A stretch of 64,000 nucleotides of DNA from Catajapyx aquilonaris (taxonomy: Eukaryota): assembly GCA_000934665.2 (NCBI GenBank), contig KZ538407.1, positions 1 through 64,000 on the forward strand. The letters run 5' to 3'. The position numbers and the translations under genes are program-made. How positions within the stretch are numbered: the stretch's first letter is position 1; the number at the start of each line of letters is the position of its first letter. Positions 24,501 to 63,191 of this stretch are shown piece by piece. The notes below the pieces were generated by a model. That model was given only the letters and a program-made list of their open reading frames with translations. It was not told where the DNA came from and ran no database searches.

Positions 24501-27500
24501 GGGAAGTGGTCCGCAGGGTAGGAGGTCAGCCACATGCGGAAGTCCGGGTGGGTGGTGTCCGGGACCAGGTCCTCGCACACCTTCTCCAGGCTGGGCATCC
24601 AGCTCTTGGCAAGGTGGCAGTTTTGGAGGACGACCCAGGTGCCGCCACGGACTCCCTCCTCGATCAGACGGACGGCAATGGGCCCCTGCCCCTGCCCCAG
24701 AGACAGCGACTGGAGCTTATGCCCGCCGAAGCCCTGGTCGTCCGCAAACTTGAGCAGAACGGCCGTCGGGTCGGCACCAGGCGTCAGAATGAATATCAAG
24801 GGCGCGCAGCAGTGCGAGTCGGCGAAGCACTTTCCCAGGTCGAAGGGCGGCGCTTCGATGAACTCCTTCCCCATGACGTCGGCCACAAAGTCCTGCACGG
24901 CCGGCACCATCTTGTCCGGACGCAGGCAGCGCAGCACGCACAGCTGCTGCAGGCCGCTCAGCTTGGTCCTCCACGGATCCGGCATCTTCTGCTGATGCGG
25001 CTCCGTGCTGTCGTATATGGCCTTCCACTCCTTCTCAAGCGGCTTTATGGTCTGGCGCAGGTCCTGCAAGAAGCGAATTAGTTCCGCAATTTAGACGCAA
25101 TCGGCTCGTACTCACCTTGAACGGAGGCAGGTCGGACAGCCGACATAGTTCGTCCCACGCTTTCGGAGGCAGCCACTGGGTCGGATTGGGGTTCGGATTG
25201 TCCAGCCCGACTCCGCCGGTCAGGAGGAACGTCCAGTCGTCGTTGTCGATTTGTCCCTTGGCCTTCATCAGGTTGACGCACAGAAGGCAGGAGAACAGGA
25301 GCTTGTCCTTCTCGAACAGGGAGCGGCACACGTTGACGTACAGCGAGTAGGTGAAGTGCGTGCGGAGGTTCTCCAGCCGCTGGTTCAGCATCTCGCTGGC
25401 CTCCGCGTTCTCCACGCTCATCAGGTACAACCCTACGAACCACGTTAGGGAGTACTGGTACATTGGGTCGATGGCCGCCAGGTCCGCGATCACAAAGAAC
25501 AGCACCGCGGAATGCTCAGCGATGGGCCTGTACTCCAGCCGCTTCTCCGTTATCTTGATCGTGGTCACTTCGGCCACGGCCTGCTTCTCGGCGATCTCGT
25601 TCGCAAGCACCTTGGACGAGCTCAGCACGTTGATCCCCGTCTCGTCCTCCAGGATGTTGCCTTCCGACGAGGACAGCACCATCAGGATCTTATCCTCAAT
25701 CTCCTTCAGGCATCTGAAAGGCAAACACATTGTACGCTGCGCCATAGGGACGACTAAGGGCCATACCGTTTGTTCTCGGCGCTCTGGACGATCAGCATCT
25801 GTCGCTCCTCTTCTAGCTCCGGGCTCTCCTTCGCCACGACCAACCCAAGCAGCTGCTCCTCCAGGCCGACCAGGGTGATCATGAAGTTGACCAGCGTGAC
25901 TTTCACCGCCGTTTCAGGAAGGTAATGCGGGTTACGCAGCTTGGTCGTGATGTACATTCTGTGGAATTGAAACGAGACGGTTCGTGGCTCGGGCAACGAT
26001 TGCGGGACTGACCTGAAGTCGGGCGAATACTCCAGGATGGAGTCGCCCAGCTTGATGCAGAGAGCGCCCCCCTGCTTGAAGGTCTGCCGCATCAGGATGG
26101 GCTCCAGCATGGGGTCCAGCTCCTCCCCGACGTTCTCCAGCAGGAGCGGCTGGCCGAACTGGATGGCGTTCTCCATCTTCCGCACAAAGTCGTTGTCCGT
26201 CAGCTTGGTCACGTTCAGCTGGTTCTTCTTCTCCATGTTCTTCAGCCACTTGTTGGCCTGCCCCTGCGGATCCATCAGCAACGGCCACCGCCTCGCATTC
26301 CTACAACGGAGATAATTATTTCATGCACCTTACAATGCGACTGTGATACGTACACCATGATTATCCCGTTGTCGATGGAGAAGGCGTCGGCCGGCAGCCC
26401 GTTGATGTTCCACTCCCGGATGACGATGGGGTTCCCGAGCGCGTTGTTCAGGTCGAAGTCCTCCGAGCAGGGTATGCCCAGCGCCCTGCACCGCTTCAGC
26501 CACAGGTTGATCTGCGTCTCGCGGTACTGCTGCGTGAAGGCGCCCAGGTAGGCCACGATCCCGGACGACACCAGCATGTCCCCGGTGATGTTGACGTAGG
26601 ACTCCCCCAGCAGCCTGGCGCTGTTGCTCCAGCGGTCCTTCTCGCCGCCCAGCCCCCCGATGAGCTTCTCCGCCCTGTCCAGCTTCTTCCCGCAGAGGTC
26701 CACGTCGGCCTGGAGGGACTCCTTCTGGCTGCGGTCGCTCTCCAGCTTCCGCTCCAGGGCGCCCAGCTTCTCCTGGACCTCTCTCAGCGCCTCCCTCTTC
26801 TTGTTGAGCGCCTCCATGGCCAGCGCCAGCTCCCCCTCCGCCTTGTTCATGGCCTCCTTCTTGGGCGCCACCACCTTGGCCACCACGTCGTACTTGTCCA
26901 TGGCCCGCACCCACTTGCAGAGTCCCTCGCAGGCCGTGGACGCAAGCTTGATCTTATCCGGGTCGAAGTCCGGGTTGGTGATGTACTTGTCCCGGATCAC
27001 CTTCATGAACTTGGGGTTGATGTTGTCCCTGTCGTACGTCTGGAGCAGCTCCAGGAACCGCATGTCTCCCAGCAGCCGCTTCGAGGGACCCCAGTAGTCC
27101 TCCACCATCTTCCCGGAGCCGCTTGGATCCGGGATTCGGTCCGGCTTGGCGCCTCGCAGGATGCAGATGCTCTCCATCACCAGCTTGACTCCCGCTGGCG
27201 GGTTCTTCATGGTCTTCACGATCCCGATGTCGGCCTGCGTCAGGGTGTTGAGGGCGGACAAGGCCATGTTGAGGATGGGCATGGCTTCGGCTAGGTCCGC
27301 GTCGCACTCGTCCTTCATCCCCTGCGCGACGCGGGCCTGCTCGTTGGCCACCTCCTCGTCCTTCTTCACCACCTTCTCGTACTCCGCCACCTCCAGCGAC
27401 TCCCGCTCAACGGTCGCCATGGACTCGGCCACCTTCTTCCCCGCTATGACCAGCAGCGGACGCTTCTGGGTCAGCTCCTCCTGCATGACGGCCACCTGGC

Positions 27501-30500
27501 TGGCCGCGCTCGCCAGCTTCTCCAGGCCCACCACGTACCGGCGTTTAGCAGTGATGATCTCGCTGTGGGAAAAACGGGATGGTCACAATTTGAAAACCGA
27601 GACGGGAGGGGGGGCTCACTTTCTCTTTCTCTCCAGTAGCGACTCGTAGGTGGCCAGAAGCTCGATGTAGGACGTGGGTGTGACGTAATAGTGCCGCTGC
27701 AGCTCGGCCAGGAACTGGAAGCTCAGCTCCTCGGTTGAGGTGTGGAAGTACTGGCACATTTCGATGCAGCCTTCCCGCTCCAGCTCGGACAGCTCCATGT
27801 TGTCCAGCGCCCGCATCGCAACGGCCTGAAGCGCATCTGGCGGCCACGGCTGTTCGAAAACAGCCGGTTAAACAAAGCTACGTCGTGAGCAGCACCCGGC
27901 GGATTACCTGAAACCAATCGATGGTGCAGCAGTTGACCAGCGACGGGAACTTCCGCAGCCGGTTGCGGAAGGAGTCTCCGATGGGGCTCATTGCCAGGAC
28001 GATGTGCAGCTGCTCCTTGATCCGCTCGATGAACAGGTTGAACAAGGCCACGGGGCTTCCGTCCGTCTGCATGCTCTTGTCCCTCTGCCTGTCCCACTGG
28101 CGCATCTTCTCGCAGATCTCCTGCTTCTCGTCCGTCGGATACAGGTTGGGGACCTCGCCAGAGTTGAGCAGGCTGCTCACGTCCTCCAGGAACGACTCCT
28201 CCTTGATCTGCAAATTGGGCCGTAATGACGCCGCGGACACAAATGGGCGGAGGAACGTACCTGCGTGTCGGTGAAGAGGAAAACGGCGTGGGTGTCCGAG
28301 GTGATTGTCTTCCGGAGCATGGCCTTGACGTCCTCCCGCCACTCCGTCATTCCGTACCCTTTGTTGATCTCCACCTGGAACATCTCGTCGTCCGCTATGT
28401 GCGCGGCCAGTCGCGTCAGGGACTGCCGGCCCGACCCGCCAACCCCGACGAGCAGGCAGTGTCCGCTGGGCTGCTTCAGCACACGCGATATCTTGGACAG
28501 ATGCTCGATCGCGAACTTGAACAGCACCAGCCGCATCGGCTTCTTGCTCATGTTGTTGAACTCGTCCAGGTAGCCCTCGACAACCTCCCGGAGCTGCTGG
28601 AGGTCCAGGACCTCCGCGTAGAACCTGTTATCGTTCTTGGGGTCGCCAAAGTCACAGTAGATCAAGTTGCGGATGTCGTCTTCAATAACCTGGAATAGCC
28701 GGAATCGTCAGCAGGTTTTCATCTCGAATTGAACAATTCGGACCGACCTGTCCTTTCCGATCGACGTCCAGGCGGGCCATCAGCTCGTTGAAGTCCTCCT
28801 TCAGGCGGTACTCGCATATCTCCGACAGCGACGAGAACAGCCAGGCGCGGTCGTCGTCGTCCACCAGCCGGTCGTAGTACACCCTGAGCACCTCGTGGAC
28901 CCACAGCCGCTTGATGTCCGCAAGCGTCTTGGTGGTCTCCGGGACGGACAGCAGCACGCCTTGGATGACCCTGGCGAAGTCCCGCAGGTTGAACAGGTAG
29001 TGCGACTTGGCCGGAGTGGGCAGCAGGTTGGCCATGGCCTGCTTGTGCAGCACCAGCGTGGCGCTCACGATCTGCTCGATGCACGGGTCGAAGTCCTTGC
29101 TGAACCCCCGCGCGTCCAAGTGCCACAGGATGATGCGGCTGAAGATGTTCTCCATGATGGAGTCGTCGAACTCGTTCATGGTGATGGTGTTGAAGTGCCG
29201 GAGGAACCGAGCCGTCACGTTGTTCCGGCCGCCCCCCGGCGGCCCCATCGCGGCCACTATCTGCAGGTCGATCAGCTTCTGCGGCACAATCTCCTTGCGG
29301 TCGTACCAGAAGAAGTGGTCCACCCACTGCCGGAGCAGCTCTATGGGAGGCTGCGCCCCGTACGTCTCCACCTGCGGCATGTTCAGGTCGTCCACAAACA
29401 CGATGCACTTCTTCCCGACGGGCGGCCCAAAGACGCCCTTGCGCCGCTTGTCCAGCTTGCTCATTATTATGTCCTGAGTCTGGTTGGCGGACGTTTGCGC
29501 CGAGAAGTTGATTATAAGCGGCATGTACGTGTTCCGGGGCAACTTCCGCAGGACCGTGTCCTGCAAATTAGTCGCAATTAGCCCCGAAGCGATGGCGGCG
29601 AGGGCACCGCACCTACCGTTATGTACACAGACTTGCCGGTTCCCGTCGGACCGACGTACAGCAGGGGCTTCTGGTGCAGCACCAGCAACTTCATGAGGGC
29701 CGTGTACCGCACCGTATCCACAGTGGGCACGATGATCTGGTTCACCTGCGCCTCACGCGGGATGGGCGGCACGTTCTGCAGCTCCTCGTCCCACTTGTGC
29801 CACTCGCCCCTTTCCTGCGAACAATTCGTATTAGCGTCGCATGTAAGCCGTACGACCGAGGGCGCACCTCCTGCACGAAGAAGTACGAGTAGATGGACTC
29901 CTCCGTCGGGAACGACGTGAGCAGCTTCACTTTCTCCGCCTGCGCCAACGGTCCGGATCGCTTGCTGTTGATCAGCTGCTTGAAGAAGATGTCGAACTTG
30001 GAGCGTCCGGTGTCGTCGCAGCTGGCTCCCAGCGACCAGATGACCGAGAACATGAACATCCCCTCCAGCAGGCACTGCACGACTATGATGTCCAGAGTGG
30101 CCACGTGCTTCGGATCGGTCAGGACGCCCAGCTGGCACTCGAACAGGTTCATCGCGGATCTGGCCAGGTTCGAGTCGCTGGTAGGGGACAGCTCTTTGAT
30201 CCCGCACTTGCGGACAAAATGAAGGGTCGGCGGCAGGAAGTGCTCGAACATCCCCCGTATGTGCTTCAGGTACGGCTCGATCGTCTCCGGAAGGGTGTTC
30301 AGCCAGGAGTGCATGACCGGCTGCCATCCGAGGGACGCAGGCTCCATGTAGATCATCCCGCAGCGGGACACCGTCGCCGGCGAGGCCACCTCCAGGTCCA
30401 TGGGCTCGAATATCAAGTTGGTGGAGTTGGACAGCTGGATGATCTCGCCGGACATGAGGCACAGCTTCTTGTTGTCGTCCAGAACCGTGTTCATGTTCTC

Positions 30501-33500
30501 GATCCAAACCGCGTCGACAGGCCCGTCGAATATCAACCACTTGCTGCGGACAGAAAAAGTGCTGTACTAAACGCCTTTCGAGATGAGGGATGCTTACCGG
30601 TCCGGAGAGGTCGACACCGCGAAATTCCGGTAGTTGACGGCCAAGATGCCATCGGACCACTCGTGGGAAGCCGGATCGAACTGCCCGTACAGCTGTCCCA
30701 TCGTGATCGACTTGGGGTTGATGATTGCGACCTGAACCTTGTTCTCCTCCATCTCGCCCTGGAATAAAAAGTCAGTCAGCCGCACATTGCTGGTCGCCCG
30801 AATCGACTCACTCTCTCGCACATGTCCCCCAGTCCGCCGGCCAGCGCCCGATACGAGGAGGTCTTCCCTCCGAAGGGCAGCCCCACGATCATGAACCCAT
30901 GCCGCACTATCATCATCTCGTATATCTGCTGGATCTTCTCCAGGAAGAAGTCCGTGCACTGCAGGTTCATCTTGATGCAGTTCTCCTTCACGGCTATGTT
31001 CAGCAGGTCGTAGTCCGGGACCGGGAGCTCGATGCCGGGGAACAAGTCGGACGTGATGCCCTGCGTAAAATCAAGGATGAAAATTTTTGCCAACTTCGAA
31101 AGCGGGAGTCGCGCTCGTACCTGAAAGAGGGGAAGGTCCTGCGCAAGAAACTTGGCCAGGTTCACATCCTTGATGGACCTCAGAACGAGAATGTCCTCCT
31201 GTTCGTCCGGGTACTTCAGCTTCAGGTTTCCGGCTGCGGTCAGCACCGACTTCACGGCTCGCATTCCTGAAACGGCAACAGGCGGATTAATTCGAGTTCA
31301 ATCCGGTTCAACCCAGGTACGTACCGTAATCGTAATGGTGCTGCGACGACAGCTGCTCCGAGCAGAGACGATAAGTTGCGACGATCTTGACCGAGAGCGG
31401 CCGGGCCGTGACGAACCCAAACGAGTACAGGACAATCTCGGAGATCAATGCGTAGTCCGGCACCATCATGGCCACGGATCGGAACAGCGCCTTCAGGTTG
31501 TCCGGCAGCTCCGATCGTCCCGCGTAACCCGGGTTCATCGTGATGAAGGTGGCGCAGGTCGGATCCAAAGTCAGCTCCGTCCCTTCAAAAAGAAGGGTCG
31601 ACGAACCGGAATTGATCCCGCGCTGGATGGTCAAAATCTGCTGAGCCACCACCGACAGCACCTGCGGAATGAGCCGGTTATTAATTAGCCAATCTTTAAA
31701 AAAATGGGGGCTCACCTCGAGGTCAATTCGGTTGAACTCGTCGAAGCAGGACCATGCGCCGCAGGAAGCCAGACCCTTGAAGAACTTCCCCAATGCGATG
31801 TAATCCAATCCGTCGGAGCAGTTGAACACGACGCACTGCTTCGCAACGGCCTTCGCCAGATCCTTGGTCGTCTCGGTCTTCCCGGTGCCGGCCGGACCCT
31901 CGGGAGCCCCGCCCAAATGCAGATGCAGGGCGCCGAATAGCGTCCGGTAGCAGCGGTCAGTCAGCGGCGTGATGACCAGCCTGGGAGTGTTTCCGAGGTA
32001 CTCGTACCCGTACGGAAGCATCGAGTTGATCATTCGCGTCAGCATATTGTCCTCCACCCAGTAGTAGCGCAATTGGGCCAGCCAAGTGAAGTCGTTGGGC
32101 TCGCTCACGTTCAGCTTGACCAGCTCGGCCAGTACGTCTCTGGCGTGGACGTCCAGCACGACCAGAGCTCCCAAGGTGACCCGGTTCTGCTTGTTCAGCT
32201 TCCCTCTGACGAGAGCGACCACCTCGTCTATCTGGTGGTTGTTCAGGTCCAGGAATTTCTGGAGGGTGGTCGGGTCCTTCACCTCGAAGGAGTCCTGGAT
32301 GTCGAGCGTCCAGTAGAGCTGCGAGACGGCCAGGACGGCCTGTCCCGCGTAGTCCAGCACCCACTCGGCTCGCGGGCGGTCCTTGTAGCCGGCTATGGCC
32401 TCGACGATCACGTTCCGGACGCTCGTCTTCATCAGGATCTCCAGCTCCTTCAGCCAGATCTCGACTTGCCCACGGGCAGCCGCGGTGCTGATAACGGCGG
32501 TCAGCGCGACGGACTCATCCTCGCTTGAGATCATCCGCGTGACATCCAAATCCTCGGTGAAGTTCAGCCGAGCGATTCCTTCGAAGCACTTCTTCAGATG
32601 CGGCTGCACCCTGCGGAACAAATTGTTACGTACAGCCGCGATTGACAAGCGAGCGTCCGCACCTGGTCGGATCCTTGGTCTCCGAGAGGATTTCCAGCAG
32701 CTCGTCGTTGGACAGGAAGAAGAAGCGGGGGAAGTACAGCCGCTTCTTCTCCAGGTAGTCGTTCAGCCCCTTCTGGATCAGCTCCAGGAGCTCGTTGGAC
32801 TTCTTCAGCCGCTCCAGCATCTTGTCGATGGACAGAACGGACATTACGTTCTTGTCCGTATTCGTGGTCTTCATGATGTCCCTCCAGGTCTGCCGTAAAG
32901 AGCATGCCAATGAGAGCGCAAAGAAACAAAAGGGGAGCTCATCCTGCGAACCTTATCGACCGTGGTGAACCGCCTTCCTTCTTCCGGCATCTGCGCCATG
33001 ATGTCCGGAGACGAAAAGATGGGCTCCAGGTACAGCCAAGTCGCCTGGACCTTCAGCCAGTCGTCCAGAATCTCCTGGAGGGTCAGCATCTTGCGCTCCC
33101 ACTCGCTGCGGCGGAACAAGCGGGTTTAAAAACAAGCGGCATAAACGTGCCGCAAACGGACTCACGTGATTTGGGCCTCGAAGGGCTTGATGAATGCGGA
33201 TCCTCGCATCGTCTGCGTCTTCACGATGTGGTCGTCCAACAGCAGCTGGATGTCGTCCACCGAGGCCACGACGTACGTTCCGGTCTCGCGGTACGGGACA
33301 ATGTGGAACTCCATCCCGGCCCATTCGGACTGCATCTTGTTCATTCCCTTCTCAAGCGAATGCTCCTTCGTGGCCGCCTCGCTGATCCCTTCAAACTTGG
33401 GGATGAACTCGTCCAGGTTCATCTCGATCACCTTGGCCAGGGTCGTCTGCGAGTCCGCCCGCAGAGGGAAGCCCACCACTTCGGACACCTTCTCCCAATG

Positions 33501-36500
33501 GCGGTCCCTCAGGCCCGGGTTGCCCAGGGTCTGCACGATAGGCAGGTGCTCCTTGAACTCCTCGATCCTATTCCGCACTTCGAACACCATGTCCTTTGTC
33601 GTGGGCGAGTCGGAGAAGCCCTTCTCCAGCTTGTACACCGTCCGGTAGAGGGTCATCGTCTCCTGCTCCACGTCCTCGGGGTTGTACGTCCCGATCTTGC
33701 CGCTCATCCACCTCTCGTAGTTGCCCATGAAGGTGTTGGCCGTCTCGTAGAAACGCAGGTACGGGTTCAGCATGTCCGCCACCTGCCTCCGGACGGGGTA
33801 CTTGCTCTCCTCCCATCCGAACGCAGCTTCCTCCGTGTTGAACTGTTCGACCTTGTCCGCGGCCGCCTCCAGCTTCCCGTTCAGATGCTGCGCCTTCTTC
33901 AGGTAGCGAGGAAGGTCGTCAAGCTCGTCGTACAGCAGGAACTCATCGGCCATCTTCCGGTAGGCTTCCAGGTCGTCGATGAACCGCTCGCGTCTCAACT
34001 GCAAGGCAGACAGATCAGAAGCCGCCAGATAATAACCCGGGGGACACAAACCTTGAGCGAATCCTGGAAGTCGGCCGTCTTGTCCTTCATGATGGTGTAG
34101 TGCTCGTCGAACACAGCCGGCATGCGTCGTTCCCAGCATACCAGTATCTGCTGTGCTTTCATGTCAATCGGCGATATGGTCGTCCGGTCGGCCAGTGCGG
34201 AGAAGCGGCGGGACAGGTCCTTCAGGAGCTCCTGCAGCTTGGCGAGCTTCTCGTCCTGAATCAGCTGGACGGCCTCCTTCTGCTCCATCAGCTGGGCCGT
34301 GTTGCCCGGTATGCTGAGCGCCCTCTCCGCAATGTTCTCGAAGGAGTTGGTCAGGTCCTTAACGGCAAGGGCGTGATCCTCGACCACTTTGGTCATCAGC
34401 CGCTCGCGAAGGGCGTCCGTCTTCTGCACCAGCCCGTGAATCAGCTGCTCGCAATGCACCTCGTAGATGCCGATGTACATAACCCGCACGTTGTCGCATG
34501 CAATCTTGTCCGCAACGACCTGCAGCTCGTCCAGCTTGTCCATGGTCGCCTTGAAGGTTGGCGTTGACTCCATGAACTCCTCCAGCTCTGCCTCGGCCGT
34601 TCCGTCGTATATGAAGTTGTACTGGCCGTACGTCTCAGCGTGTGCGGTCGGACCCTGATTCTGCTCAGCTAGGAAGTTCTGCACCCGCTTCTTCGCAGCC
34701 TCCACAATTTCAGGCAGGATCGTCGGCTGCAACAACCGGATTAGACAGGTCCACAAACATCAACGGCCCCCAACATACCTTCAAATACTCAACGACATCG
34801 GTGCTGATTCCCGATGCCCGACATTCAACCCGCTGGATCGTTGCCACTGCGGCTACATGTCGGTCGAACACCGACAGCAGCGTCCGCTCCCACTCTGCGT
34901 ACGACGGATCGGGCAACAGCTCCCGTCCACTAGACACCAGCCGCATCACAAACTTGGGCTTCACGTCGTCAAACTGCGGACAAATGCGTTACGTACGAAC
35001 AGCTGCAGTACTGATCCAACTTACCCGAGCGCAGCAGAGATAGTCCGCATAGTCCTGGATACTACTGAGACATAGACTCTGAAGATGCCGTTCCATGAGC
35101 GTACCCAGGCAGTTGAAGAAGCTGCGTAGCCGCCTGGGTTTTTCCATGGGCGGTACGACGCCCGGCTTACGTGAGCAGACGTTGATGGCATTGTTGACTG
35201 ACGGCATCCACTTGCGGTTCAGCTCCACCACCGCAATCTCCATGTGGTTGTGCGCCTGCTTCTGGAAGTCGCTTATCTCCAGCGGATCCGTCCGTTCCAG
35301 CAGCAAAGTCGGGTTGAGGAGCCGCAACTTGCTGAACATTGTCTCCCAAATGTCGTGCACTCGGGCCATGCAGATCGAGTACGCGTGCAGGCGGTACATG
35401 ACGTACCGCTTGGCAAACACAATGTCCCGGTTCCACGGCTTGGGCATCACGAGCAGCTCCTGGGGGAGGGTCAGCTGCGGGATGGGCCGCCACGGAGACG
35501 CAACAGGGTCGGCGTCGCACAGCACAAAGTCCATCACAGACTTCTTCATGGCCAGGAGGTACAGCTCGCACACATGGTCCGACAGCTGCCCGGCCGACTT
35601 GGCCAGACTGTTCCGGAGGTACTCCGGCACCTGGTTCAGTATGTTGCACAGCCAGTCGGTGGGCAACGGGCCGACCTTCTCCGTCGCGATGCCGTTGTGC
35701 ATGTAGTAGTAGTATCGCAGCCGTTCCCAATCCAATGTGTCGTCAGCCGGGGTCAGCTTCTGTACACGCTGCAGCTGCACCTCCCGCTCCTCCCCTTTCA
35801 TCAGGTCAACCAGCAACGAGCGGTAGTTGGCCCGCTTCTTTATCATCCCCAGGTAGTCCCACAGCTTCCCTTCCTGCGGACACAACCAGTTAGCTTTGGC
35901 TCCGTCAATGAACACTACAGTGGCATTTCCAACTGAACATTATTGTGGCTATGCCAGTGGGTTTTCCAGTGATCATCACAGCAGCTTCTCCAAATGAACA
36001 TTATAGTCGCTGTTCCAATGAACGTTATTGTGGCTGTTCAAATGAACATTATTGTGGCTTTTCCAATAATTATGAACCTTATTGTGGCTATGCCAATTGA
36101 ACGTTACGGTGGCTTTTCCAGTGATCATTACAGCGGCTTCTCCAAATGAAGGTTATAGTGGCTGTTCAAATGAACATTATTGTGGCTTTTCCAATTTATG
36201 AACGTTATTGTGGCTCTGCCAATAAGCAAGTATGGAGGCTCACCCTTTTTTTCCTCTTGTTTTCCGTTTTTATTGGCTCAATTTCATGAATTTCAAGGAA
36301 GATGTGGATTCCCTAATGAACGTTATTGTGGCTTTTCCAATTTATGAACGTTATTGTGGCTCTGCCAATAAGCAAGTATGAATACCCACCCTTTTTTCCT
36401 CTAGTTTTCCGTTTTTAATTGGCTCAATTTCAAGGAAGACGTGGATTCCCTAATGAACGTTATTGTGGCTTTTCCAATAACGAACGTTATTGTGGCTTTT

Positions 36501-36769
36501 CCAATAATGAACGTTATTGTGTGGCTTTTTCCAATAATGAACGTTATTGTGGCTGTGCCAATAATGAGAGCAAGTAGTATGGAGATGGAGACTCGTACCC
36601 TTTTCTTCCCCTTGTTTTCCACTTGGCTTTTGGGTTTGGTCCCAGGCAAGGTGTAGAGGTCCTTCCTGAGCATCTTCTGCTTGTCGTTTGGCACAGCGGA
36701 GGTGACCATCACTCTCTTGACCGGCCTCCTGGGCATGGGGACGCCGAGGGCGGCCAGCCGTTCCTCCAT
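21564..36769 (-). CDS. DNAH7: Axonemal inner-arm dynein heavy chain, DNAH7-like, complete multi-exon gene
   Basis: AAA1 GPAGTGKT and [11 protein letters not shown]2 [11 protein letters not shown]3 [11 protein letters not shown]4 GVGGSGRQ, stalk/MTBD, C-terminus [14 protein letters not shown]...[16 protein letters not shown]-terminal [18 protein letters not shown]...KKSVMDFVL recalls DNAH7. Most introns ~50-65 nt; first coding exon 36599-36769, last 21564-21770. Confidence 0.93.
35907..36565. repeat. Minisatellite (~24-27-bp unit AATGAACGTTATTGTGGCTTTTCCAAT) in DNAH7 first coding intron, with higher-order duplication
   Basis: Many degenerate copies. The block ...TTGGCTCAATTTCA...GTGGATTCCCTAATGAACG occurs twice (~36260-36345 and ~36405-36480). 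Confidence 0.9.
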
Positions 36770-36939: not shown

Positions 36940-37190
36940 GCGTCCGTCTCCGGGGAAACCGACGCCCACCGTATCCGAGAGAGTCATTACGGTAGCGGCG
37001 GCGGCGGCGGGGGAATTCGAAAATTCGAAAATTCGAAAATTCGGCGAGGGACCAATCAGAGAGAGAGAGACACTCGCGGCCAATCAGAGACACGCACTCG
37101 CGGCCAATCAAAGACACGCACTCGCGGCCAATCAGAATGAGGGCAGGTGACGTAACAGTCACGTGATGACGCCATCGGGCGCCATCTTGT
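36940..37190. promoter_or_regulatory. Putative bidirectional promoter shared by DNAH7 and Rag-like copy 1
   Basis: X-box-like GTCTCCGGGGAAAC (36946-36959), four CCAAT boxes (37052, 37080, 37104, 37128), TGACGTAA (37148), E-box GTCACGTGAT (37158-37167) and YY1-like CGCCATCTTG (37180). Lies between divergent start codons at 36769 and 37461. Confidence 0.7.
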
Positions 37191-37460: not shown

Positions 37461-39700
37461 ATGGATCAGAAGTTTAACCGTGCACCGTGCGGACCAAAGA
37501 CTGGGGCAGTCCCCAAACGACCGGTGGTTGCTGGACCCAGGGCAGAGGAGGCTGCTTTGGAGGAGACAATGGCTGGGCTGAAATTGGGCAGGGCGCAGAT
37601 GGAACGTCGAAATGTGCCTGCTCGTCGACCCCATCAGGCTGCGGGGATGGCACCCAGACCACCCCATGCACCAGCCACACAGCCTCCGCATCTAAACGGG
37701 GCACTAGAATACTGCAATAAGCGCTCCGTCATTATTGTAGGCACTCCGAAGTAAGTACCAGTACCTGTCCATTGGAATTGTTGCAATGAGCACTCACACC
37801 ATTGGTTGCTGCAGAGGTGGCAAAACCTACGTGAAGCGCACGGCATTTGGTGTGGAGAATGCAACTCACATCCAGCAAGGAGGTGTGCAGGTCCACGACC
37901 TGTCCTCACTTTCGTTCTTCCCGCTGCTGGTCAAGGAAGTTCCAGGCGATTCGACAAGAAAGATCGACCCTCGGCTGTTGTCCACAGGACAGTCCCTTGC
38001 AGCCTTCCTCTGCGTCGTCGGTGTCGCACCTAAGGTGAGTAATATTAACCACTACACACCACAACTGCACTACTGCATACTATCGGGTTCAAATACTTTT
38101 GGCCACTTTATCCTGGTCTTGACGCAACCCTTCTCACACACCCCATGTTAAGAAGGTGTGTGAGTGTGAAGGGTTGCTTCAAGACCAGGATAAAGTGGCC
38201 AAAAGTATTTGAACCCTATAGTATCAACAGTTCAAAAAGAATTGTCCCAGTCATCCTGACGTGTGGGCTGGCCGCTCGACACACACCATGTAAGTTACAT
38301 GGTGTGTGTCGAGCGGGCAGCACACACATCAGGATGACTGGGACAATTCTTTTTGAACTGATGATACATGCCAATATTTGTTTCATGCAGGACACGGAGG
38401 AGACCATTTGCAACTCCATTAATCTACTGGCTAAGGCCCTACAAGCAAGCAACCAGCAGGCTCGCGTCTACATCCTGCTCAATTGGTTTGGGCAGGAGAG
38501 ACTGACCACAGCGATGGGTGTGCGGAAGAAGATTAGAGGGATCTTGCAAGTACCACTGTGCAATGAGAGCCATCCGCCTCAACTGCTGGAGTCCATACAC
38601 TCCCACGAAGATATGAAGATGGTGGGTGAGGTCATCATCCGCAACCTGTTTGCATCAGAAGTGCAGGAGATGAATGCATTCCTGCAGGAACTGCTCAAGG
38701 TGAGTCAAGTGGGATATTACCTTCCCACTGCAATCGTGTCACTTACTATGAGCAAGAACAATGACTGCCATTCATAACACTACTGAGTTTGCAAATGTAA
38801 ATTCATATTCATTGTCACTCTTTCATTTCACGCCCAAAATCATGCCACTGGACAAAAATCCTCAACAGTGTTGCTAATAGTTGCATTAAACAAGCTGGAT
38901 ATTCCAGGCATTGGCTGAACGTTATTGTTTGTATACTGCTGGGGGATAACACCATGTACTTTATTGCTACTGTGTTGAGTATATTACAAGACTGTGGTCT
39001 CTGCTGTTATTGCTTTCAGAACCACCCCGCAAGTACAGCCTGCTTAATAGACAACAGGAGGCAGCCAATTGTTCTCCAGCCATGCGGCATAGAGACCCCC
39101 TGGATGATGCAGATCTATAGGGCAGCTCCAACTGCACTACAGGGGTAAACATCATGAGAGGATTTTTCCGTGCCGATATTTACACACCTCATTTTACTAC
39201 TTTTTGACAGCAAGGACAACGGCCAGGAGGTTGGAGGTGTAGTGGAAGTGCAAGGCGAGCTTGGTGTTTTCAGGACGATCTGGCGTATCCATGACAGAAT
39301 GTTCCTGTGCATTCTCTCCAACGAAGGTGACATAGGTAAGCTTTAATTGTTGTGGGGTGCATCGCACTTATTTGGGGTGTTGCGTGCCCATAGTCCAGGA
39401 GGAGAGAAGTGGGAGATCAAGTGTAATCCTGCTGTCCATTTGTTTCACGGGAAGCAAGAAACTGCAAGTGAATGTGGCTTTGTTGCTTATCCTTAAACTG
39501 CTTGCAATGGGAGTGACCAATTCACAACTTTTCCCTTCTGCCCTCCTCTTCGGCAGTGGACTGGAAAGTGAGCCGCCTTTTATACGATTTAATTTTGGAT
39601 TTCCTTTATTCCAGGTGTATCTCTGGAAACTGTCTTGGATATAAATGATATGGTGTGCCGAGCACGCCATAGGTTCATCACCTGGCCGCCATTGGGGTAG
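37461..39700 (+). CDS. Divergent RagC/D (Gtr2)-like GTPase-fold protein, copy 1; exons 37461-37750, 37815-38034, 38391-38699, 39020-39144, 39211-39335, 39615-39700 (optional exon 39394-39567)
   Basis: Spliced product has VIIVGTPKGGKT (P-loop), VHDLSSLSFFPLLVKEVPGD and LAAFLCVVGV. GT-AG junctions are in frame, and intron positions/phases match copies 2 and 3. Confidence 0.75.
38085..38216. mobile_element. Hairpin MITE family D in intron 2 of Rag-like copy 1
   Basis: About 50-bp near-perfect arms (TTTGGCCACTTTATCCTGGTCTTGA...); same family at 43753-43870. Confidence 0.8.
38221..38367. mobile_element. Second hairpin MITE in intron 2 of Rag-like copy 1
   Basis: Near-perfect ~145-bp fold-back (GTATCA.CAGTTCAAAAAGAATTGTCCCAGTCATCCTGA...TCAGGATGACTGGGACAATTCTTTTTGAACTG.TGATAC). 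Confidence 0.8.
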
Positions 39701-40850
39701 TTTGTGGGACACTTACCGCTTTTTTACACTTAAAAAGGACAGGCCGCATTTTCTTAACAAGCTTGCCCTTGACGGTAATAAAACGAAACTAAGAAGTCAT
39801 ATCCAATCTTCAGACTCAGATTATGTTTCCAGATTAAGGCAAAATTTGACACTTTGACATGACACTTAAAGCCCATCCACTCCTTCTCGTGCAGCACATG
39901 CCTACTTCCGCTTCCCCTCCCACCTCATGACATGATTGCCAGCCCTAAAATGCATCCCACGGACATGGTTACAGAAGGATTTACTGAAATCCAACGGCAG
40001 TCAGGTTAAGGGTATGTTGCGAATGAAAGCACCCACAGCCTTGTCCGTTACGGTGTTCAGTATTCCTAGGAGACATGCCAAGTCTGGTGAGATGTCGAAA
40101 ATGCAATTGGGATGGTCCTGTGTAATTAAGGGTTATGCCGACCGTCATCAGTTATTCTCAGCCACATTTGGATACTTTCGGAATGGCCATGTCTGCTCTC
40201 AATCCGTCCATGAATATGCCTTGCGGTGTGTCACAAGTATTTACGACTATGCATTGTTTACATTTCTTCTTCTTTTTCAATAAAGTAGCCTAGTGGTTCT
40301 ATACAAATTGTGCATGATTTGATGTCCCCATACACCATACACGTAATGCGAGTCAACCGCAAAAGTAGGAGTCCACCCCGTGACAATGGCAACTGCTTGA
40401 GGTAAACAGTCCCTGCCAACATGGTCACACGGATGTCAACAAATGGGGCCATTCTTAATGCCAGCAGGAGACGGGCATTAGAACAGGTCGCTTCCGATCA
40501 ATAAAAGATGCTCACAAGCACAAGGGAAGTGTTGTCCGTGGAGTTTCTGAATGCAACTTGGCACAATAATATAGGCAGGTAAGTTATTAAAAGAAAATGC
40601 AAACAATTTAGGCGGACGTCCACGAGGTCAAAACTTCTCGAACTCACAAGGGACACTTTCCAAGGTCTCGCAGATTTTTCTTGAAATTCGGTACATTTGG
40701 TAGGCCACCCCCAAGGGATGAAAAACGCACCTAAAGTGACCTGCTCAAAATGAACCAGTTGACCGGGGGGGCAGAGGTCAACTCTTAAATTCGGTGCATT
40801 GGTAGCCCCCAAAAAGGGGCCATCGGGTCATTTTGAGCAGATCACTTTAG

Positions 40851-41854
40851 CAGGGCTGGCTTTATGCATTTCCTTTTATAGGCCATTCACTTTGTGCCGC
40901 CCCTCCCCAACGCCACTCCTTCAATTTAATTATTTATACAAACTGTGTATGTGGTTTCGTGTTATAGGCCTAACCTAAATATCATAAATAGTCTGTGGGC
41001 CTATAAGAAAGAGTTTAAAAACATGGTAAATTACTAAATAACACTATTTTGTCCATGGAAATTTATTGCTTTTTTCATGTTCCTTAAGTCATTCGTAAGT
41101 CATAATGACTGTAATGACCATCCATTTTGTCTTCGATTTATTTTTGACATCTGGACAGTCAACAAACCCAAATCCTCCAATACAGCAGTTCTTCCCCAAT
41201 CAAGCGGGCCTAAATGTTGCTAGACCATCTCGGATTTTTCTGAAAATAATCACAGGTATACACACCTATGCCATAACACTGCATGTAAAGTTTCAGCCAA
41301 ATTGCGAAATACCACGGGGAAGGAAGAAATAGCGAAATTTTGTAAATGAGGCCTTTTGGGGGATATTTTTTTTTCGGGTAAAAACTGCTATATATTTGAG
41401 GACTTTGGTTTTTTTTTTATTGCCCCGAGGTCAAAAACAAATGGAAGACAAAATGACCTAAGGAACACGAATATGACGATGAATTTACATGGACCAAAAA
41501 TGGCCAAATTTTGTTGCATAGTGTAATTAAGGCAATTTACTAGTAATTAATATATTTCAACGAAATGAAGAACATGGGGCATTGTTTTCTCCCCATGGCG
41601 CAACGGATAGCTGGCCTGCGATTGGCTAAAACAGTCAATCACAGGCCAGCTCAGCTCTATTTTCAAAGTTCACCCCCAACGACTCGACTTATTAAATACT
41701 AACAGCCAGGCCTCCTCCTGCTAACATTGCCGCCCTAAAAAGTCATCCGGTTAATATCAGAGAAACAAAAATGTGCCGCCCCCGGCCGCCCCACAAAAAT
41801 TTGCCGCCCTATAGGCCACGGCCTACTGGGGGCCTATTGGTAAAGTCAGCACTG
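40851..41854. mobile_element. hAT-like non-autonomous element nested in the fold-back
   Basis: TIRs CAGGGCTGGCTTTA / TAAAGTCAGCACTG; imperfect 8-bp TSD CACTTTAG / CACTTTTT(AG); subterminal TGCCGCCC repeats. Confidence 0.7.
41030..41550. mobile_element. Degenerate inverted-repeat element nested inside the hAT-like element
   Basis: ~41030-41190 is an imperfect reverse complement of ~41380-41550. Confidence 0.55.
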
Positions 41855-42342
41855 CACTTTTTAGGTGCGTTTTTCATCCCTTGGGGGTGGCCTACCAAAT
41901 GTACCGAATTTCAAGAAAATCTGCGAGACCTTGGAAAGTGTCCCTTGTGAATGTTCGAGAGGTCATAACTTTTGACCTTGTGGACGTCCCGCCTAAATTG
42001 TTTGCATTTTCTTACCTGCCTATGTGCCAAGTTGCATTCAGAAAACTCCACTGACAACACTTACACTTCCCTTGTCAGTTATCCGATTCCCATTTTCAAA
42101 TATTGCGGTCAAGTTGACTCCCATATTAAAAAGGGGCGTCCAAATGGGTGGTTCAAATTCAAACGACGCGCCGTATTCAATTAACTGTGACGTCATGCCA
42201 ACTGTGCCTCTGTTCCTCCCCCCAATAAGATTTTGCTGTATAACTTGCATGTCAAATCGCTTCGTCTCAGAGGATTTTAAACAAAAACAAGTGCGTTCTT
42301 TAAATGTGATTATTTATAAAAATGTCAAATCGGGTGGATGTG

Positions 42343-42640
42343 GGTTGGCAATCCTGATGAACGACCGTTAATTTGTTGGCAACCCTGATGAACGGCCGTT
42401 AATGTGTTGGCAACCCTGATAGAACGGCCGTTAATGTGTTGGCAACCCTGAGAGAACGGCCGTTAACATGTTGGCAATCCTGATAGAACGGCCGTTAATT
42501 TGTTGGCAACCTTGATGAACGGCCGTTAATATGTTGGCAATACTGATAGAACGGCCGTTAATTTGTTGGCAACCCTGATGAACGGCCGTTAACATGTTGG
42601 CAACCCTGATGAACGGCCGTTAACATGTTGGCAACCCTGA
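42343..42640. repeat. Minisatellite, ~9.5 copies of a 31-32-bp unit TGTTGGCAACCCTGATGAACGGCCGTTAA(T/C)
   Basis: Directly visible head-to-tail copies with no unique spacers. Confidence 0.95.
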
Positions 42641-42858
42641 GGACGCCAATTTATCCGGCCCTGAGGCCGCCATTTTACACGCCACGGGGCTCCTGGAGTC
42701 TTTTACTGTCTCGTTCAGGGAAAGGAAAGGGAGATCAACAGGCGGGGAAGTAAGTTGGGGGTCAGAGGTCACACACACACACACACAGGCCAGAAGGTAG
42801 CTGAAGGAACACAGGTTAAGGTGGACTCTCTCTCTCTCCCCCCCTCCTCCCCCCCAGT

Positions 42859-44568
42859 ATGAGTGACTATAGAGAAGTGCATCGGGGAGGACAACAGTGG
42901 AGCTCAGATGCGCAGGCTGTCCACCACCAGGGGAAGGCCAACCTGGAGTTCCGCAAGAGGACCCTTATCATTCTGGGCACCGAGAGGTACGTTGGACTGG
43001 CAGTGGAATTATTGTTGGCAGGGTGATGAGCACTCTTTTACCTTGGTTGTTGCAGGTCCGGGAAGAGCCTCCTCAAGCAAGTGGCCTTTGATTGCGGGAC
43101 TGGCGGCGCTGCAGATCTGGTGAAAGTGGATGACCTGTCCTCCCGCACCTTCCTTCCCATGGTGGTGAAGGAGGTGCCGGGGGACTGGCAAAGGAAGCGG
43201 CTCAACACTGACCGCCTCCTAGGACAGTCCTCCGGAGAGTCTGGCGTTGTCGGAGCCATCATCTGCGTGGTTGGGGTGAAAGAAAACGTGATTAATTGAT
43301 TTCCTTGTTTACTGCAGTTCTGCTATGCTGACTATACTGTACATGCCACGATTTGTTTCATGCAGGACACCGATGCCACCATCTTCGCAATGATTGTCCA
43401 GATGGTTCAGGCACTAGAGGGAGGTAACCAGCCCGTCCTTGTGTATTACCTCCTCCACTGGCTATGCCAAGAGAGGCCAGACACTGTGATGAGAGTACGA
43501 CAGAAGATGAGGCAGCTACCAAAATCCAGGCTGTGCAGTGACTCCTACCCAGCACTGGAGTCTGTTCACTCCCGACATGGACTGATCATGTTTGGAAACA
43601 CGATCAGGCAAGAACTGTTCTATCAGGATCTGAAGGAAGTGAACAAGTACCTGGAGGAGCTGCTTATGGTGGGACATTACACTATGGTTGCCAGGGTTGA
43701 CACACCTCAGCTTCTCCACATTTTGACACGTGGACAGACCGTCATGTACTATAATTGCTTTGGCCACTTTATCCTGGTCTTGAAGCAACCCTTCACACAC
43801 ACCCACTTGCTGACCGTGGGGCCTGTGCGAAGGGTTGCTTCGAAACCAGGATAAAGTGGCCAAAACAATTTCAGCCCCATAGTACTCGAGGCTGCTGTTA
43901 TTGCTTTCAGAAATGCGGAGCAAACTCTGCTGCGCTAGTCGACAGCCAGACGAAGCTGACAATCACCATGCGGCCATTGACATACCAGAACCATTTGATG
44001 GTGGACTCTTACCGTGCAGCACCCACCAAACTCTACCAGCTGAAGGGGTAAATATCAGTGGGATTTTCCTCTCCTGATATTATTTTACAGGCCACTTTTT
44101 CCCCCCTTTCTGGCAGGAAGAAGAGCAAGGACATTGGCTCTATGGTTAGAGTGGATGGCGAGCTTGGGGTGGTTATGACGATTGTCCGCATACATGAGCT
44201 CCTCCTGCTTTGCCTTCTCTCCAACGAAGTAGGAGTAGGTAAGCTCAAATAGTTGTGGGTGCGTGGTGCCCACTAATTTGGGGGTGGTGCATCTGCACAG
44301 TTCAAGAGGAGGGAAGGAAGAGAAGGTTGAATCAAGTGCAGGCGGTAGGTTTGTTGCATATCCTTCAACTGCTTGCTGGGAGCAAACAATATTCAAAACT
44401 TTTCTCCCCTGCCCTCCTCTTCGGCTGTGGACTGGAAAGCGAGCCACCTTTTATACGATTTAATTTTGGATTTCCTTTATTCCAGAAGTCTCTAAGAAAA
44501 CTGTGTTGGAGCTCAATGAGCTTGCTTGCCATGCCCGCCATCCATTTCTCACCTGGCCACCGCCATAG
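42859..44568 (+). CDS. Divergent RagC/D-like protein, copy 2; exons 42859-42986, 43056-43287, 43366-43668, 43911-44047, 44117-44238, 44486-44568 (optional exon 44301-44438)
   Basis: TLIILGTERSGKSLLKQVAF (cf. RagC [19 protein letters not shown]), KVDDLSSRTFLPMVVKEVPGD (cf. [20 protein letters not shown]), KCGANSAALVDSQTKLTI (cf. NSGIEKAFLFDVVSKIYI). In-frame GT-AG junctions. Confidence 0.78.
43753..43870. mobile_element. Hairpin MITE family D in intron 3 of Rag-like copy 2
   Basis: Arms nearly identical to 38085-38216. Confidence 0.8.
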
Positions 44569-45569
44569 GGCTTATCCCAAGAATTTTCCTGTGAGCAAAG
44601 TCTTAGCCGAGCGACATCACTGAGTAACGTGATTAACAAATATTGTTTGAGATGAAAATCATTTCTTACTTTCACCTAAAACAATGGTTACTCAGCAATG
44701 TTATCGATCGGCTTTAGGCTTGTCTTTGATGAAAATAAAAAATAAAACTCAAAAGTTGTATTTTATGTTTGATAAATGTTTTCAGATTATGTCTAATGAC
44801 ACTTTCACATTACAATTAAAGCCTGTCTGTCCCTACTCGTGTGGTCACCCTCCTTCCACCTGATGCCTACCATATTATGCAGATGATGATGATGCACTAC
44901 CCGCCTTACAATGCGTCCCATTAACATGGTTGTTGAAGCATCCACTAAAAGCCAATGGCAGCAAGTTAAGGGTGTGTGGCAGGGGTCCGCTTCCCCTTTC
45001 ACCGAAAGGCGACCATAACCAAGAATCGGCTAGAAAAAGTCCCAGGAAATTAGACACTTACTGTAAATAACAATGATGTAGCCTAAAGTACAAAAGAAAT
45101 GCAAATAGGATAATCCAAGTATCTTTTGTTATTAGAAATTTCGCTCGAAGCTGTTATTTTGATGTACTTGTAGCTTGTTGCATGTAGCCATGGCAGCCAT
45201 GGCCGTGAAGTAAACAGTCCCTGCCAAATTATGGAGTGTCAACAATGGGGCACATTCTTTAATCTTGGTGGAGGTCATTCGACTGACAGCAGGAGACGGG
45301 GCATTAGAACAGATCTGATTATATCAGCATCTGCATCGTCGGTTCTGTGCTCACTCTTCCACTGGACACGGCAGCATCTGGTTCGGCCTCTCTCGTCGTT
45401 GGATCTGTCGCCATCAAGTGATGGACCACTTGTAAGCAGGACACAGCCTCATCTCTTTTTCTTCTCCAAACGACATTGTTGCTCCATTTATTATTGTTGT
45501 TGTTGAAGCGAGGACGAGAGTTGCATCTCGCCGAGTGGAGTGAGCGAGGCGTCGTCCCTTCCCAGTCCC

Positions 45570-47223
45570 ATGGACACCCCGTCGCCCGTGCCCTCCTCGC
45601 TGGACAGTCCGGTGCTGGGGGGTCCATTGGACGAAGGAGGAGGAGGTCATCTCCTCCCGCCTCCACCCTACAGCCCCATATCACCCATGGCCGTCCTCCT
45701 CATGTCGCCTTCCCTGCTGGAGGCAGCAGCCGCGGCCATGGACTGCCAGGACTGCCCGGTGGAGTGCAGCACACCGGACGCAGAGGAAGAGGACAAGCCC
45801 CGAAGCAGCAGCAGCAACAGGAGGAAGAAGAAGCAGCGGTTCTCATCGGAGACGTACCTGCGTCCGGACACGGGGGCCGTCCCCAAGAGCACCCTGTCCG
45901 CACCAGCAGCCGGCATCACCACGGCCTGGCCACCACCAGCACCTCCGTCTCCTCCCAACAACACCCGAAAGGGACCCAGGCCAGGACCCAGGCCGGTCGG
46001 GTACGGGAAACGCACGGTGGTCATCATGGGTCCTCACAGGTACAGCAGTGTCCACTTATGTCACCCGAGTGTTTACCACAAATAACCAATCCATCAGGAG
46101 CGGCAAGAGCACCCTGAGGCAGCAGGTGTTCCTAGGGGACAACGCCAGCTGCAACGGGAAGCCCCAGGACCACGACCTGTCCCACTCCAGCTACCTGCCC
46201 TTCGAGGTCAAGGAGCTTCCTGGCCACTGGTCCTCTTGGATCGAGCTGGTACACGCCTCCTGCTGCGGGGTCTTTGCCGCTTTCGTCGGGGTCGTCGACG
46301 TACACGTGAGTCTCCACCAACATATACCGTGTTAACTATTCAGATCTCGAACATGGTGCGCAGGGGGACCCGAGGCACGCCCTGGAGACTGTCCAGTCCA
46401 TGTCCAGCTGCATGGCCAAGTTCCCTGTCCCGGCCAGGGTCTTCTTCCTGCTCAACGCCTTCGAGACGGCTGAACCGGACAGCGTCCAGCAGGTGCGGGA
46501 CGCCCTGGCCATCCGTCTTCTGGAGGACCAGTCCCTGCGGAACGGACCGCTCCCTCCAGAGGTGTTCGTGGCATCGGTGTACGACGACAGCCTGCACCTC
46601 GCCTTCGAAGTCATCCTCCGCGGACTCTTCGCAGACGTCGTTCTCGCGCTGGACACGTTCCTCGCCCAGCTGATCCAGGTACTGTCTCACGGATTCACAT
46701 TGCCACACACTACAACAATGATGCCCTGCAGTCGTGTGGGGCCAGCTGCGCAGCCCTAGTGGACAGCCACACTCTTCTGACTGTCAGCAGGGCGCCCATT
46801 GACCTTCCAGAGAGTCCCGTCGTCGTCTCGGCCATTCGATCCGGTGCCAACACCCTCAGGATGGAGCACGGGTATGTGGACAATTGGAGTACTCCTTTGA
46901 GCATTGTTGCATTGATTGTTTCCACAGCCCTGCCGAGTGCCAGGAGGTCGGGTGCAGGTCAGAGAAGGAGATCCTCCAGGGGATTGTCCAGACGGCCTTC
47001 AGGGTGCACCGTCGGCTGGTGCTGGTCACCCTCTCGCACAAGGGAGCCGTCCTTGGTCAGTCTCCGCATGATCCGATCGGTACTGGTATGGTTCTAACAA
47101 TGTGCGGTGCTTCTTCCCGCAGATGTTCCAGCGGAGAAGATAAACCAGCTGAACGGACTGGCTCGCTCTCTGAAGAAGGCCATAACCACGCCACAACGGA
47201 CACCCACGTCCGACATAAACTAA
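45570..47223 (+). CDS. Divergent RagC/D-like protein, copy 3 (most canonical); exons 45570-46039, 46098-46305, 46364-46678, 46732-46871, 46928-47055, 47123-47223
   Basis: VVIMGPHRSGKSTLRQQVF, DHDLSHSSYLPFEVKELPGH, AAFVGVVDVH|GD, VFVASVYDDSLHLAFEVILRGLF (cf. RagC [23 protein letters not shown]), SCGASCAALVDSHTLLTVS, SLKKAIT. AATAAA at 47295. Confidence 0.82.
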
Positions 47224-47472: not shown

Positions 47473-47961
47473 ATGGCCAAGTTGTTGGGACTGGACAAGC
47501 TGAAGAGGGCCTTTGACATCCTGAGGGAGAACGGGGGGATCAGGGCCTCCCTCTACAAGCTGTACAGGCAGGACGAGCTCAAGACGGGCACGCTGGTCGG
47601 TACGGACAAGTACGGGAACAAGTACTTTGAGAACAAGATGTACTTCTACGGTAAGCCGCTCTCTTCGCTCTCTTTCCAGTGGATGCCCCTTCAATTGCGG
47701 TTTCCGTTGACAGGTCGCAACCGGTGGGTGGAGTACAACGATGCTGTTGGGATGGATTACGACGGGAGCCAGGTCCCGGGAGAGTGGTTCGGATGGCTGC
47801 ACTACAAGACGGACGACCTCCCAACCAAGGTGGCCCCCGTGCAGTACAAGTGGATGCAGGACCACGTAGAGAACATGTCTGGGACGTCCGGTGCATACGC
47901 TCCCTACTCCACCACCACGCCTAAGATCGAAGGGTGGCAGCCAAAGAAAAAGTCCTCCTGA
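47473..47961 (+). CDS. NDUFA12: NADH dehydrogenase [ubiquinone] 1 alpha subcomplex subunit 12; exons 47473-47650, 47714-47961
   Basis: LYRQDELKTGTLVGTDKYGNKYFEN...GRNRWVEY...DGSQVPGEWFGWLHY...ENMSGT...YSTTTPKIEGWQP. 63-nt GT-AG intron; AATAAA at 48031. Confidence 0.96.
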   Translation: MAKLLGLDKLKRAFDILRENGGIRASLYKLYRQDELKTGTLVGTDKYGNKYFENKMYFYGKPLSSLSFQWMPLQLRFPLTGRNRWVEYNDAVGMDYDGSQVPGEWFGWLHYKTDDLPTKVAPVQYKWMQDHVENMSGTSGAYAPYSTTTPKIEGWQPKKKSS

Positions 47962-63044: not shown

Positions 63045-63191
63045 ATACACACCCTTCTTCGGGTAAAAGCTTTGCAAACGACAGCGTATCATCCAGCAGC
63101 CAATGGCCTTGTAGAAAGGTTTAACCGTACTCTATGTGATATGCTAAGTCACTATGTAGACACAAATCACATGAACTGGGACAGGGAACTG
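63045..63191 (+). pseudogene. Ty3/Gypsy-type LTR retrotransposon integrase core fragment
   Basis: TTAYHPAANGLVERFNRTLCDMLSHYVD...NWD, the region around the catalytic Glu of rve integrases. Flanks show no recognisable pol. Confidence 0.85.

Follow-up and report, generated by a model that had tools for sequence, protein, structure and literature searches.

Three tandem Rag-like genes with an intact P-loop and degenerate G3 and G4 motifs: putative RagC-derived subunits whose state may no longer follow GTP/GDP

Organisation of the locus

Rag GTPases are normally divided into just two conserved types, A/B and C/D, which form a pair whose nucleotide states signal amino-acid availability to TORC1. 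A tandem array of three related genes, here named copies 1, 2 and 3, was analysed in a 64,000-nt stretch of DNA from Catajapyx aquilonaris (contig KZ538407.1 of assembly GCA_000934665.2, positions 1 to 64,000; hereafter the window). The encoded proteins keep the P-loop of Rag GTPases and lack the G3 glutamine as well as the G4 lysine and aspartate, which suggests subunits of RagC type in which the guanine-nucleotide switch may have been dismantled. The following models were obtained.

37461-39644, forward strand: copy 1 gene, six-exon GT-AG model, 439 aa
37461-37750, 37815-38034, 38391-38699, 39020-39144, 39211-39335, 39394-39644, forward strand: copy 1 exons
42859-44623, forward strand: copy 2 gene, six-exon model, 414 aa
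42859-42986, 43056-43287, 43366-43668, 43911-44047, 44117-44238, 44301-44623, forward strand: copy 2 exons
45570-47223, forward strand: copy 3 gene, six-exon model, 453 aa
45570-46039, 46098-46305, 46364-46678, 46732-46871, 46928-47055, 47123-47223, forward strand: copy 3 exons

The models were built ab initio from a reading of the DNA combined with tblastx among the three copies. The splice sites of copy 2 (GT donors, phases as in copy 1) were read by eye. All three genes share GT-AG introns with phases 2,0,0,2,1, the introns of copy 3 being 53-67 nt long, and each model contains exactly one stop codon, at its end. Across the three copies an in-frame stop was found 15-66 nt before the ATG (15 nt for copy 1, 42 nt for copy 2). 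Polyadenylation signals are located at 39777 (copy 1), 44734/44741 (copy 2) and 47295 (copy 3), approximately 70-135 nt from the stop codon. Copies 1 and 2 are 49% identical at the protein level, and copy 3 shares 33% identity with copy 1 and 31% with copy 2. A tblastn search with the three proteins detected no fourth copy anywhere in the 64-kb window. The genes reach beyond the range 37815..46678 given in the original prediction, from 37461 to 47223.

Several repeats lie within and around the array. Palindromic elements resembling miniature inverted-repeat transposable elements occupy 38077-38367 in intron 2 of copy 1 and 43753-43884 in intron 3 of copy 2; complementarity between paired arms is 88-95%, and the two insertions resemble each other at 83-86%. 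Between copies 1 and 2, a perfect inverted repeat of 60 nt (40676-40735 and 41860-41919, arms 1124 nt apart) probably represents the termini of a transposable element. Tandem arrays precede copy 1 (36001-36567, period 24-28/146 nt, and 37071-37136, period 24 nt) and copy 2 (42344-42640, period 31/63 nt).

G motifs of the three proteins

The P-loop (G1) of all three genes is interrupted by intron 1, a phase-2 GT-AG intron of 58-69 nt. For this reason the P-loops are absent from plain lists of open reading frames (ORFs) and are seen only after splicing. The motifs were located as follows.

37740-37750 joined to 37815-37827, forward strand: copy 1 P-loop GTPKGGKT, split by intron 1 (37751-37814)
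42976-42986 joined to 43056-43068, forward strand: copy 2 P-loop GTERSGKS, split by intron 1 (42987-43055)
46029-46039 joined to 46098-46110, forward strand: copy 3 P-loop GPHRSGKS, split by intron 1 (46040-46097)
37933-37950, forward strand: copy 1 G3 equivalent KEVPGD, aligned by the exon 2 profile to WDFPGQ of RagC (115-120)
43168-43185, forward strand: copy 2 G3 equivalent KEVPGD, by the exon 2 profile alignment to RagC
46210-46227, forward strand: copy 3 G3 equivalent KELPGH, by the exon 2 profile alignment to RagC
38481-38492, forward strand: copy 1 G4 equivalent NWFG
43456-43467, forward strand: copy 2 G4 equivalent HWLC
46454-46465, forward strand: copy 3 G4 equivalent NAFE (NxxE pattern), at about position 119-122 of the Gtr1_RagA profile by Pfam match offsets
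38589-38603, forward strand: copy 1 G5 equivalent ESIHS
43558-43572, forward strand: copy 2 G5 equivalent ESVHS
46571-46585, forward strand: copy 3 G5 equivalent ASVYD

The homology of G1 and G3 was assigned from a HMMER alignment to RagC residues S72-S75 and W115-Q120. For G4 and G5 it was assigned from the match of exon 3 of copy 3 to Pfam, the spacing of the motifs and the hydrophobic strand preceding each of them, with a TSI[WY]D-type motif, after the TSIYD quoted in the original prediction, taken as the reference for G5. The last residues of G3 and G4 are separated by 62, 68 and 60 residues in copies 1, 2 and 3, and the corresponding spacing from Q120 to D181 in RagC is 61 (residue numbering with S75, Q120 and D181 as in PMC5680233).

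All of the G3, G4 and G5 residues quoted in the original prediction were recovered at aligned positions in the three copies. Its statement that G1 is intact was borne out once the genes had been spliced, since all three P-loops were then present, and a regular-expression scan of the full proteins detected GxxxxGK[ST] once per protein in 3/3 copies. The loss of G4 was likewise corroborated: NWFG, HWLC and NAFE occupy the homologous site and the guanine-specifying aspartate is gone. The same appears to hold for G5, which was said to be kept only in copy 3 (ASVYD vs ESIHS and ESVHS), and for a short switch I, in agreement with a G1-to-G3 interval of 41, 39 and 39 residues in copies 1, 2 and 3 vs 45 in RagC. 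No conserved switch I threonine was seen across the three copies. The claim of a lost G3 had to be refined. The glutamine is indeed gone, but the aspartate is not simply lost: it is conservatively replaced by glutamate in 3/3 copies. This glutamate is invariant and lies inside V-K-E-[VL]-P-G, the best-conserved stretch of the three proteins. Intact G3 or G4 motifs elsewhere, named beforehand as a possible refutation, were excluded at sequence level by scanning the full proteins, in which neither [NTHS]KxD nor the looser [NTHSQ][KR]x[DE] occurs in any of the three copies and DxxG occurs nowhere in copies 1 and 2.

Relationship to Rag GTPases

Profile and remote homology searches were run on single exons, as contiguous translations (69-105 residues in the protein searches). 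Exon 3 of copy 3 matched the Pfam family Gtr1_RagA (PF04670) with an E value of 1.1e-4 and 22.1 bits, the curated cut-off being 22; residues 6-101 of the exon correspond to profile positions 94-188. When a profile built from the three exon 2 translations was run against all PDB sequences, 13 rows were obtained. Nine of them, including the top seven, were RagC or RagD chains (E 0.07-1.5), the remaining four were FimG, and RagA, RagB and Gtr1 were absent from the 13 rows. In this alignment SGKS falls on residues 72-75 of RagC, KEVPGD on W115-Q120 and the D-L-S-x-S-F strand on the D-I-S-N-S-S-F strand of RagC. Because the independent exons 2 and 3 agree, in colinear order, on one family and on its C/D branch, a Rag ancestry of the three genes is considered probable, although the support for it is thin. 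On the exon 2 profile the original description as Rag-like paralogues can be narrowed to RagC/D-like rather than RagA-like. Judged from sequence similarity, a GTPase fold may have been retained.

Exon 3 of copy 3 searched alone against the PDB did not find a Rag protein. Its language-model neighbours were clusters of GTPase fold, one of them Gtr1_RagA, with scores of 0.83-0.90, which serve as leads only. An AlphaFold2 model of the same exon alone, made with a three-row alignment, had a mean predicted local distance difference test score of 47.8 and was not interpretable. Among the sub-threshold Pfam matches, DUF5580_M (E 0.027), obtained with exon 3 of copy 1, was rejected as chance, since no other exon matches this family; it is also disfavoured by the description of the C-terminal domain of DUF5580 as EF-hand-like. 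Weak matches to DUF5818 and DUF6713 were disregarded.

The closest known proteins are RagC/RagD (Gtr2 in yeast). Common to both sides are an RSGKS-type P-loop with the same helix after it, the x-x-P-G-x start of switch II and the D-[LI]-S-x-S-S-[FY] strand (HMMER, RagC 72-121), a similar spacing of G3 and G4, and a region of about 120-170 residues after the G domain, at the place where Rag proteins have a roadblock domain. In contrast, DxxGQ at G3 of RagC/RagD is replaced here by ExxG[D/H], HKVD at G4 has given way to NWFG, HWLC or NAFE, only copy 3 appears to retain G5, and switch I has lost 4-6 residues. The genes stand in a tandem array of three instead of singly; their N-terminal tails are long and unrelated, and profiles fail to recognise the C-terminal region.

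C-terminal region and N-terminal tails

Exons 4-6 are conserved among the copies, and the length of the region is approximately that of a roadblock domain (about 120-170 residues after the G domain). Profiles of exon 4 and of exon 5 retrieved no Rag chain from the PDB. The region may resemble the C-terminal domain of RagC.

The N-terminal tails are long and divergent. The proline-rich tail of copy 3 is presumably disordered and carries two short features.

45660-45671, forward strand: PPPY motif in the N-terminal tail of copy 3
45819-45839, forward strand: basic cluster RRKKKQR in the N-terminal tail of copy 3

The hexapeptide TGAVPK is common to the otherwise unrelated tails of copy 1 (37500-37517) and copy 3 (45870-45887). 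TGAVPK, PPPY and RRKKKQR are possible short linear motifs.

Selection and gene integrity

The proportions of nonsynonymous (pN) and synonymous (pS) differences were estimated for each pair of genes. Copies 1 and 2 gave a pN of 0.32 and a pS of 0.62 overall, corresponding to a pN/pS of 0.51 (bootstrap 95% 0.43-0.59), and 0.47 (bootstrap 95% 0.38-0.57) in the G domain. The two pairs that include copy 3 gave pN/pS values of 0.66 and 0.71, and in both the upper bound stayed below 1. Because pN is lower than pS and three six-exon ORFs have stayed intact at high divergence, the three genes appear to be under purifying selection, which argues against pseudogenes.

The 3' end of copies 1 and 2 behaves differently. 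Over their last 56 aligned codons pS is 0.24, vs 0.6-0.7 elsewhere in the genes, and pN/pS is 0.75 (95% 0.42-1.49). The 3' parts of the two genes, 44044-44570 in copy 2 and 39141-39696 in copy 1, share a 570-nt stretch of 69% DNA identity which spans exon 5, intron 5 and exon 6 and continues past the stop codons. Gene conversion may have homogenised the 3' part; alternatively, the models of copies 1 and 2 may run past the true C-termini and take in non-coding 3' sequence as ORF.

Searches for relatives

Relatives were searched in protein and metagenome collections. A word-indexed search of longer proteins with copy 3 exon 3 gave 540 candidates, none at E <= 0.001, and the exon 2 alignment gave 4328 candidates among longer proteins, none at E <= 0.01. 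With the exon 3 alignment, 131 candidates of near length were obtained, none of which reached E <= 10. An exhaustive HMMER search of 1.84 billion representatives with the exon 3 profile produced 0 matches at E <= 0.001, and a scan of metagenome contigs with the exon 2 alignment gave 150 pattern matches, none of them confirmed. These empty searches are weak evidence for lineage restriction, the queries being only exon pieces of 69-105 residues. Nothing relevant on Rag-derived pseudoGTPases or extra RagC-like paralogues was found in the literature searched, the scope of which left out subscription journals and database annotations.

Neighbouring genes

The gene next to the array is readily recognised.

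47473-47961, forward strand: NDUFA12 gene, starting 250 nt after the copy 3 stop codon, with one 57-nt in-frame GT-AG intron

The best solved relatives of its ORF (47473-47958) are 8esw, 8ba0 and 8b9z (156-167 bits), and query residues 62-80, left unmatched, correspond to the intron. Mammalian-type chains scored about 87-95 bits. The entries 8B9Z and 8BA0 are reportedly named in a paper on complex I of Drosophila melanogaster (PMC9977279), and 8esw is presumably from Drosophila as well. The insect-like NDUFA12 places the locus in an invertebrate, most likely an arthropod-like one; a fish origin, considered at first, was rejected on this comparison. Since the locus is not that of a vertebrate, the naming of the expected partner as RagA/B needs to be adjusted to a single RagA-B. 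No RagA-type sequence was found in the window.

Further features were recognised by eye: a stathmin-like ORF (23-571, reverse strand), junctophilin-like exons with MORN repeats (8298-9005 and 18591-19798, forward strand), an axonemal dynein heavy chain (about 23055-35939, reverse strand) with unusually long exons of up to 484 codons, and a retrotransposon integrase-like fragment (ORF 62994-63353, forward strand). A 108-base run of N at 4783-4890 marks an assembly gap. Rfam gave no match in the 64-kb window.

Discussion

In a GTPase the lysine and the Ser/Thr of the P-loop hold the beta-phosphate and Mg2+, the G3 aspartate positions the Mg2+ water, the G3 glutamine positions the attacking water, and the G4 aspartate reads the guanine base. 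With the G4 lysine and aspartate and the G3 glutamine gone in all three proteins, guanine-specific cycling is very unlikely. Substitutions in RagC itself give a measure of these positions: guanine-nucleotide binding of the D181N variant falls below 2% of wild type, and Q120L is in use as a GTP-locked form, according to PMC5680233. The original prediction of proteins unable to cycle GTP normally is therefore in line with both the motif loss and the behaviour of D181N, but the term 'pseudo' may be wrong for copy 3, the least degenerate of the three.

The favoured explanation, with a probability of roughly 0.55, is that the array encodes RagC-derived subunits whose state no longer follows GTP/GDP. 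Three tandem, intact and selectively maintained genes would descend from a RagC/D-type Rag GTPase, and their divergence would have dismantled the guanine-nucleotide switch. The glycine, lysine and Ser/Thr of the Walker-A motif (P-loop) are kept together with an acidic G3 residue, and a phosphate-bearing ligand may still bind. The G4 lysine and aspartate, the G3 glutamine, the switch I threonine and, in copies 1 and 2, G5 are lost or reduced, and switch I is shortened. The outcome would most likely be a Rag-like subunit fixed in a single state or controlled by a different ligand or partner. Should the C-terminal third have remained a roadblock domain, which serves dimerisation, pairing with a RagA-type partner could change what the Rag dimer reports. 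For these proteins both RagA pairing and a link to TORC1 are conjectural. So are the decoy role towards RagA/B-Ragulator and the MiT/TFE control proposed in the original prediction; the C-terminal part that dimerisation would require was recognised by no profile.

A number of observations weigh against this explanation. Each Rag match is weak when taken alone: Gtr1_RagA was matched neither by exon 3 of copies 1 and 2 nor by any exon 2 translation, none of the three single exon 2 translations (0/3) found a Rag chain in the PDB with phmmer, and the exon 3 profile found none either. Exons 4-6 matched neither a roadblock nor a Rag profile, their Pfam scores did not rise above noise, and the protein searches yielded zero homologues. 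The gene models are ab initio and derived from the DNA sequence only. With pS values of 0.62-0.71 synonymous sites are near saturation, and the selection estimates are rough. Finally, the G3 glutamate and the intact P-loop would be compatible with binding of a Mg-nucleotide, and PGH and NxxE in copy 3 resemble motifs of working NTPases.

The last two points would be expected if the proteins were working NTPases with a changed base specificity, with copy 3 especially binding and hydrolysing ATP or being indifferent to the base, as a Rag-like switch that responds to another nucleotide. This main rival is judged unlikely, yet several features of the G domain speak for it: the P-loop is intact in 3/3 copies, an invariant glutamate stands in place of the G3 aspartate, and copy 3 retains the G5-like ASVYD. 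Copy 3 also has PGH at G3, and a histidine is the catalytic residue of the translational GTPases with DxPGH. At G4 its NAFE follows the NxxE pattern of YchF/OLA1, in which NxxE replaces NKxD and is linked to altered nucleotide specificity (PMC8779481). However, copies 1 and 2 are without this pattern, since NWFG and HWLC offer no acidic or amide pair at G4, aspartate replaces their G3 glutamine, and a conserved switch I threonine is missing across the copies. The likeness to YchF and EF-Tu consists of short motifs and not of homology. With YchF/OLA1, P-loop 'GTPases' that prefer ATP, the copies share nothing beyond the fold class of the P-loop, which makes it a likeness of possible working and not of family.

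Alternatively, the genes could be fast-evolving and possibly tissue-restricted duplicates outside the Rag pathway, with neither RagA pairing nor TORC1 input, whose G-domain scaffold serves a new protein-protein interaction in the manner of class i pseudoGTPases. PseudoGTPases are the closest functional category: the N-terminal domain of AAGAB, pG1 and pG2 of p190RhoGAP and the degenerate septins have lost catalytic or specificity motifs in genes under selection, as seen here. In such proteins the function moves to protein-protein interaction, and AAGAB offers an example in which a domain of this kind serves purely for binding (PMC12490416). The very high divergence of neighbouring copies (31-49% identity), the C-terminal region recognised by no profile and the long divergent N-terminal tails with PPPY, the basic cluster and TGAVPK (in copies 1 and 3) would agree with such a role. 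In contrast, a P-loop kept in 3/3 copies is unexpected for a pure scaffold. According to PMC12490416 the AAGAB domain does not bind nucleotide and the conserved residues of its G motifs are missing, whereas G1 is fully intact in the three copies, which suggests retained phosphate binding. Exons 4-6, whose length would suit a roadblock domain, are conserved among the copies, and this too speaks against the alternative, which is considered improbable. Decaying pseudogenes or mis-modelled exons, with P-loops that are splicing artefacts, are highly improbable. In favour of this view, the models are backed by sequence alone, no annotated relatives appeared in the protein searches, and the final 56 codons of the alignment between copies 1 and 2 fit neutral change. 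Against it, the three ORFs run over 414-453 codons and six exons each without an internal stop, splice sites are canonical with identical phases, GxxxxGK[ST] is restored in 3/3 copies by removal of the same phase-2 intron, and pN/pS in the G domain lies below 1.

Under the favoured explanation of RagC-derived subunits uncoupled from GTP/GDP, a more specific proposal can be put forward, which is speculative. An invertebrate tandem family of such subunits would pair with a RagA-type GTPase and be blind to guanine nucleotides, copies 1 and 2 being locked in one state and copy 3 (ExPGH, NxxE) being liganded by ATP or otherwise, and the Rag-TORC1 input would thereby bypass the control by a GTPase-activating protein of FLCN type. 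Copy 3, if expressed, would show whether another nucleotide can be accommodated by a Rag scaffold. If expressed, the three genes would constitute a natural experiment on a Rag dimer with one half unable to switch and, if the explanation is true, could reveal a lineage-specific biasing or rewiring of nutrient signalling.

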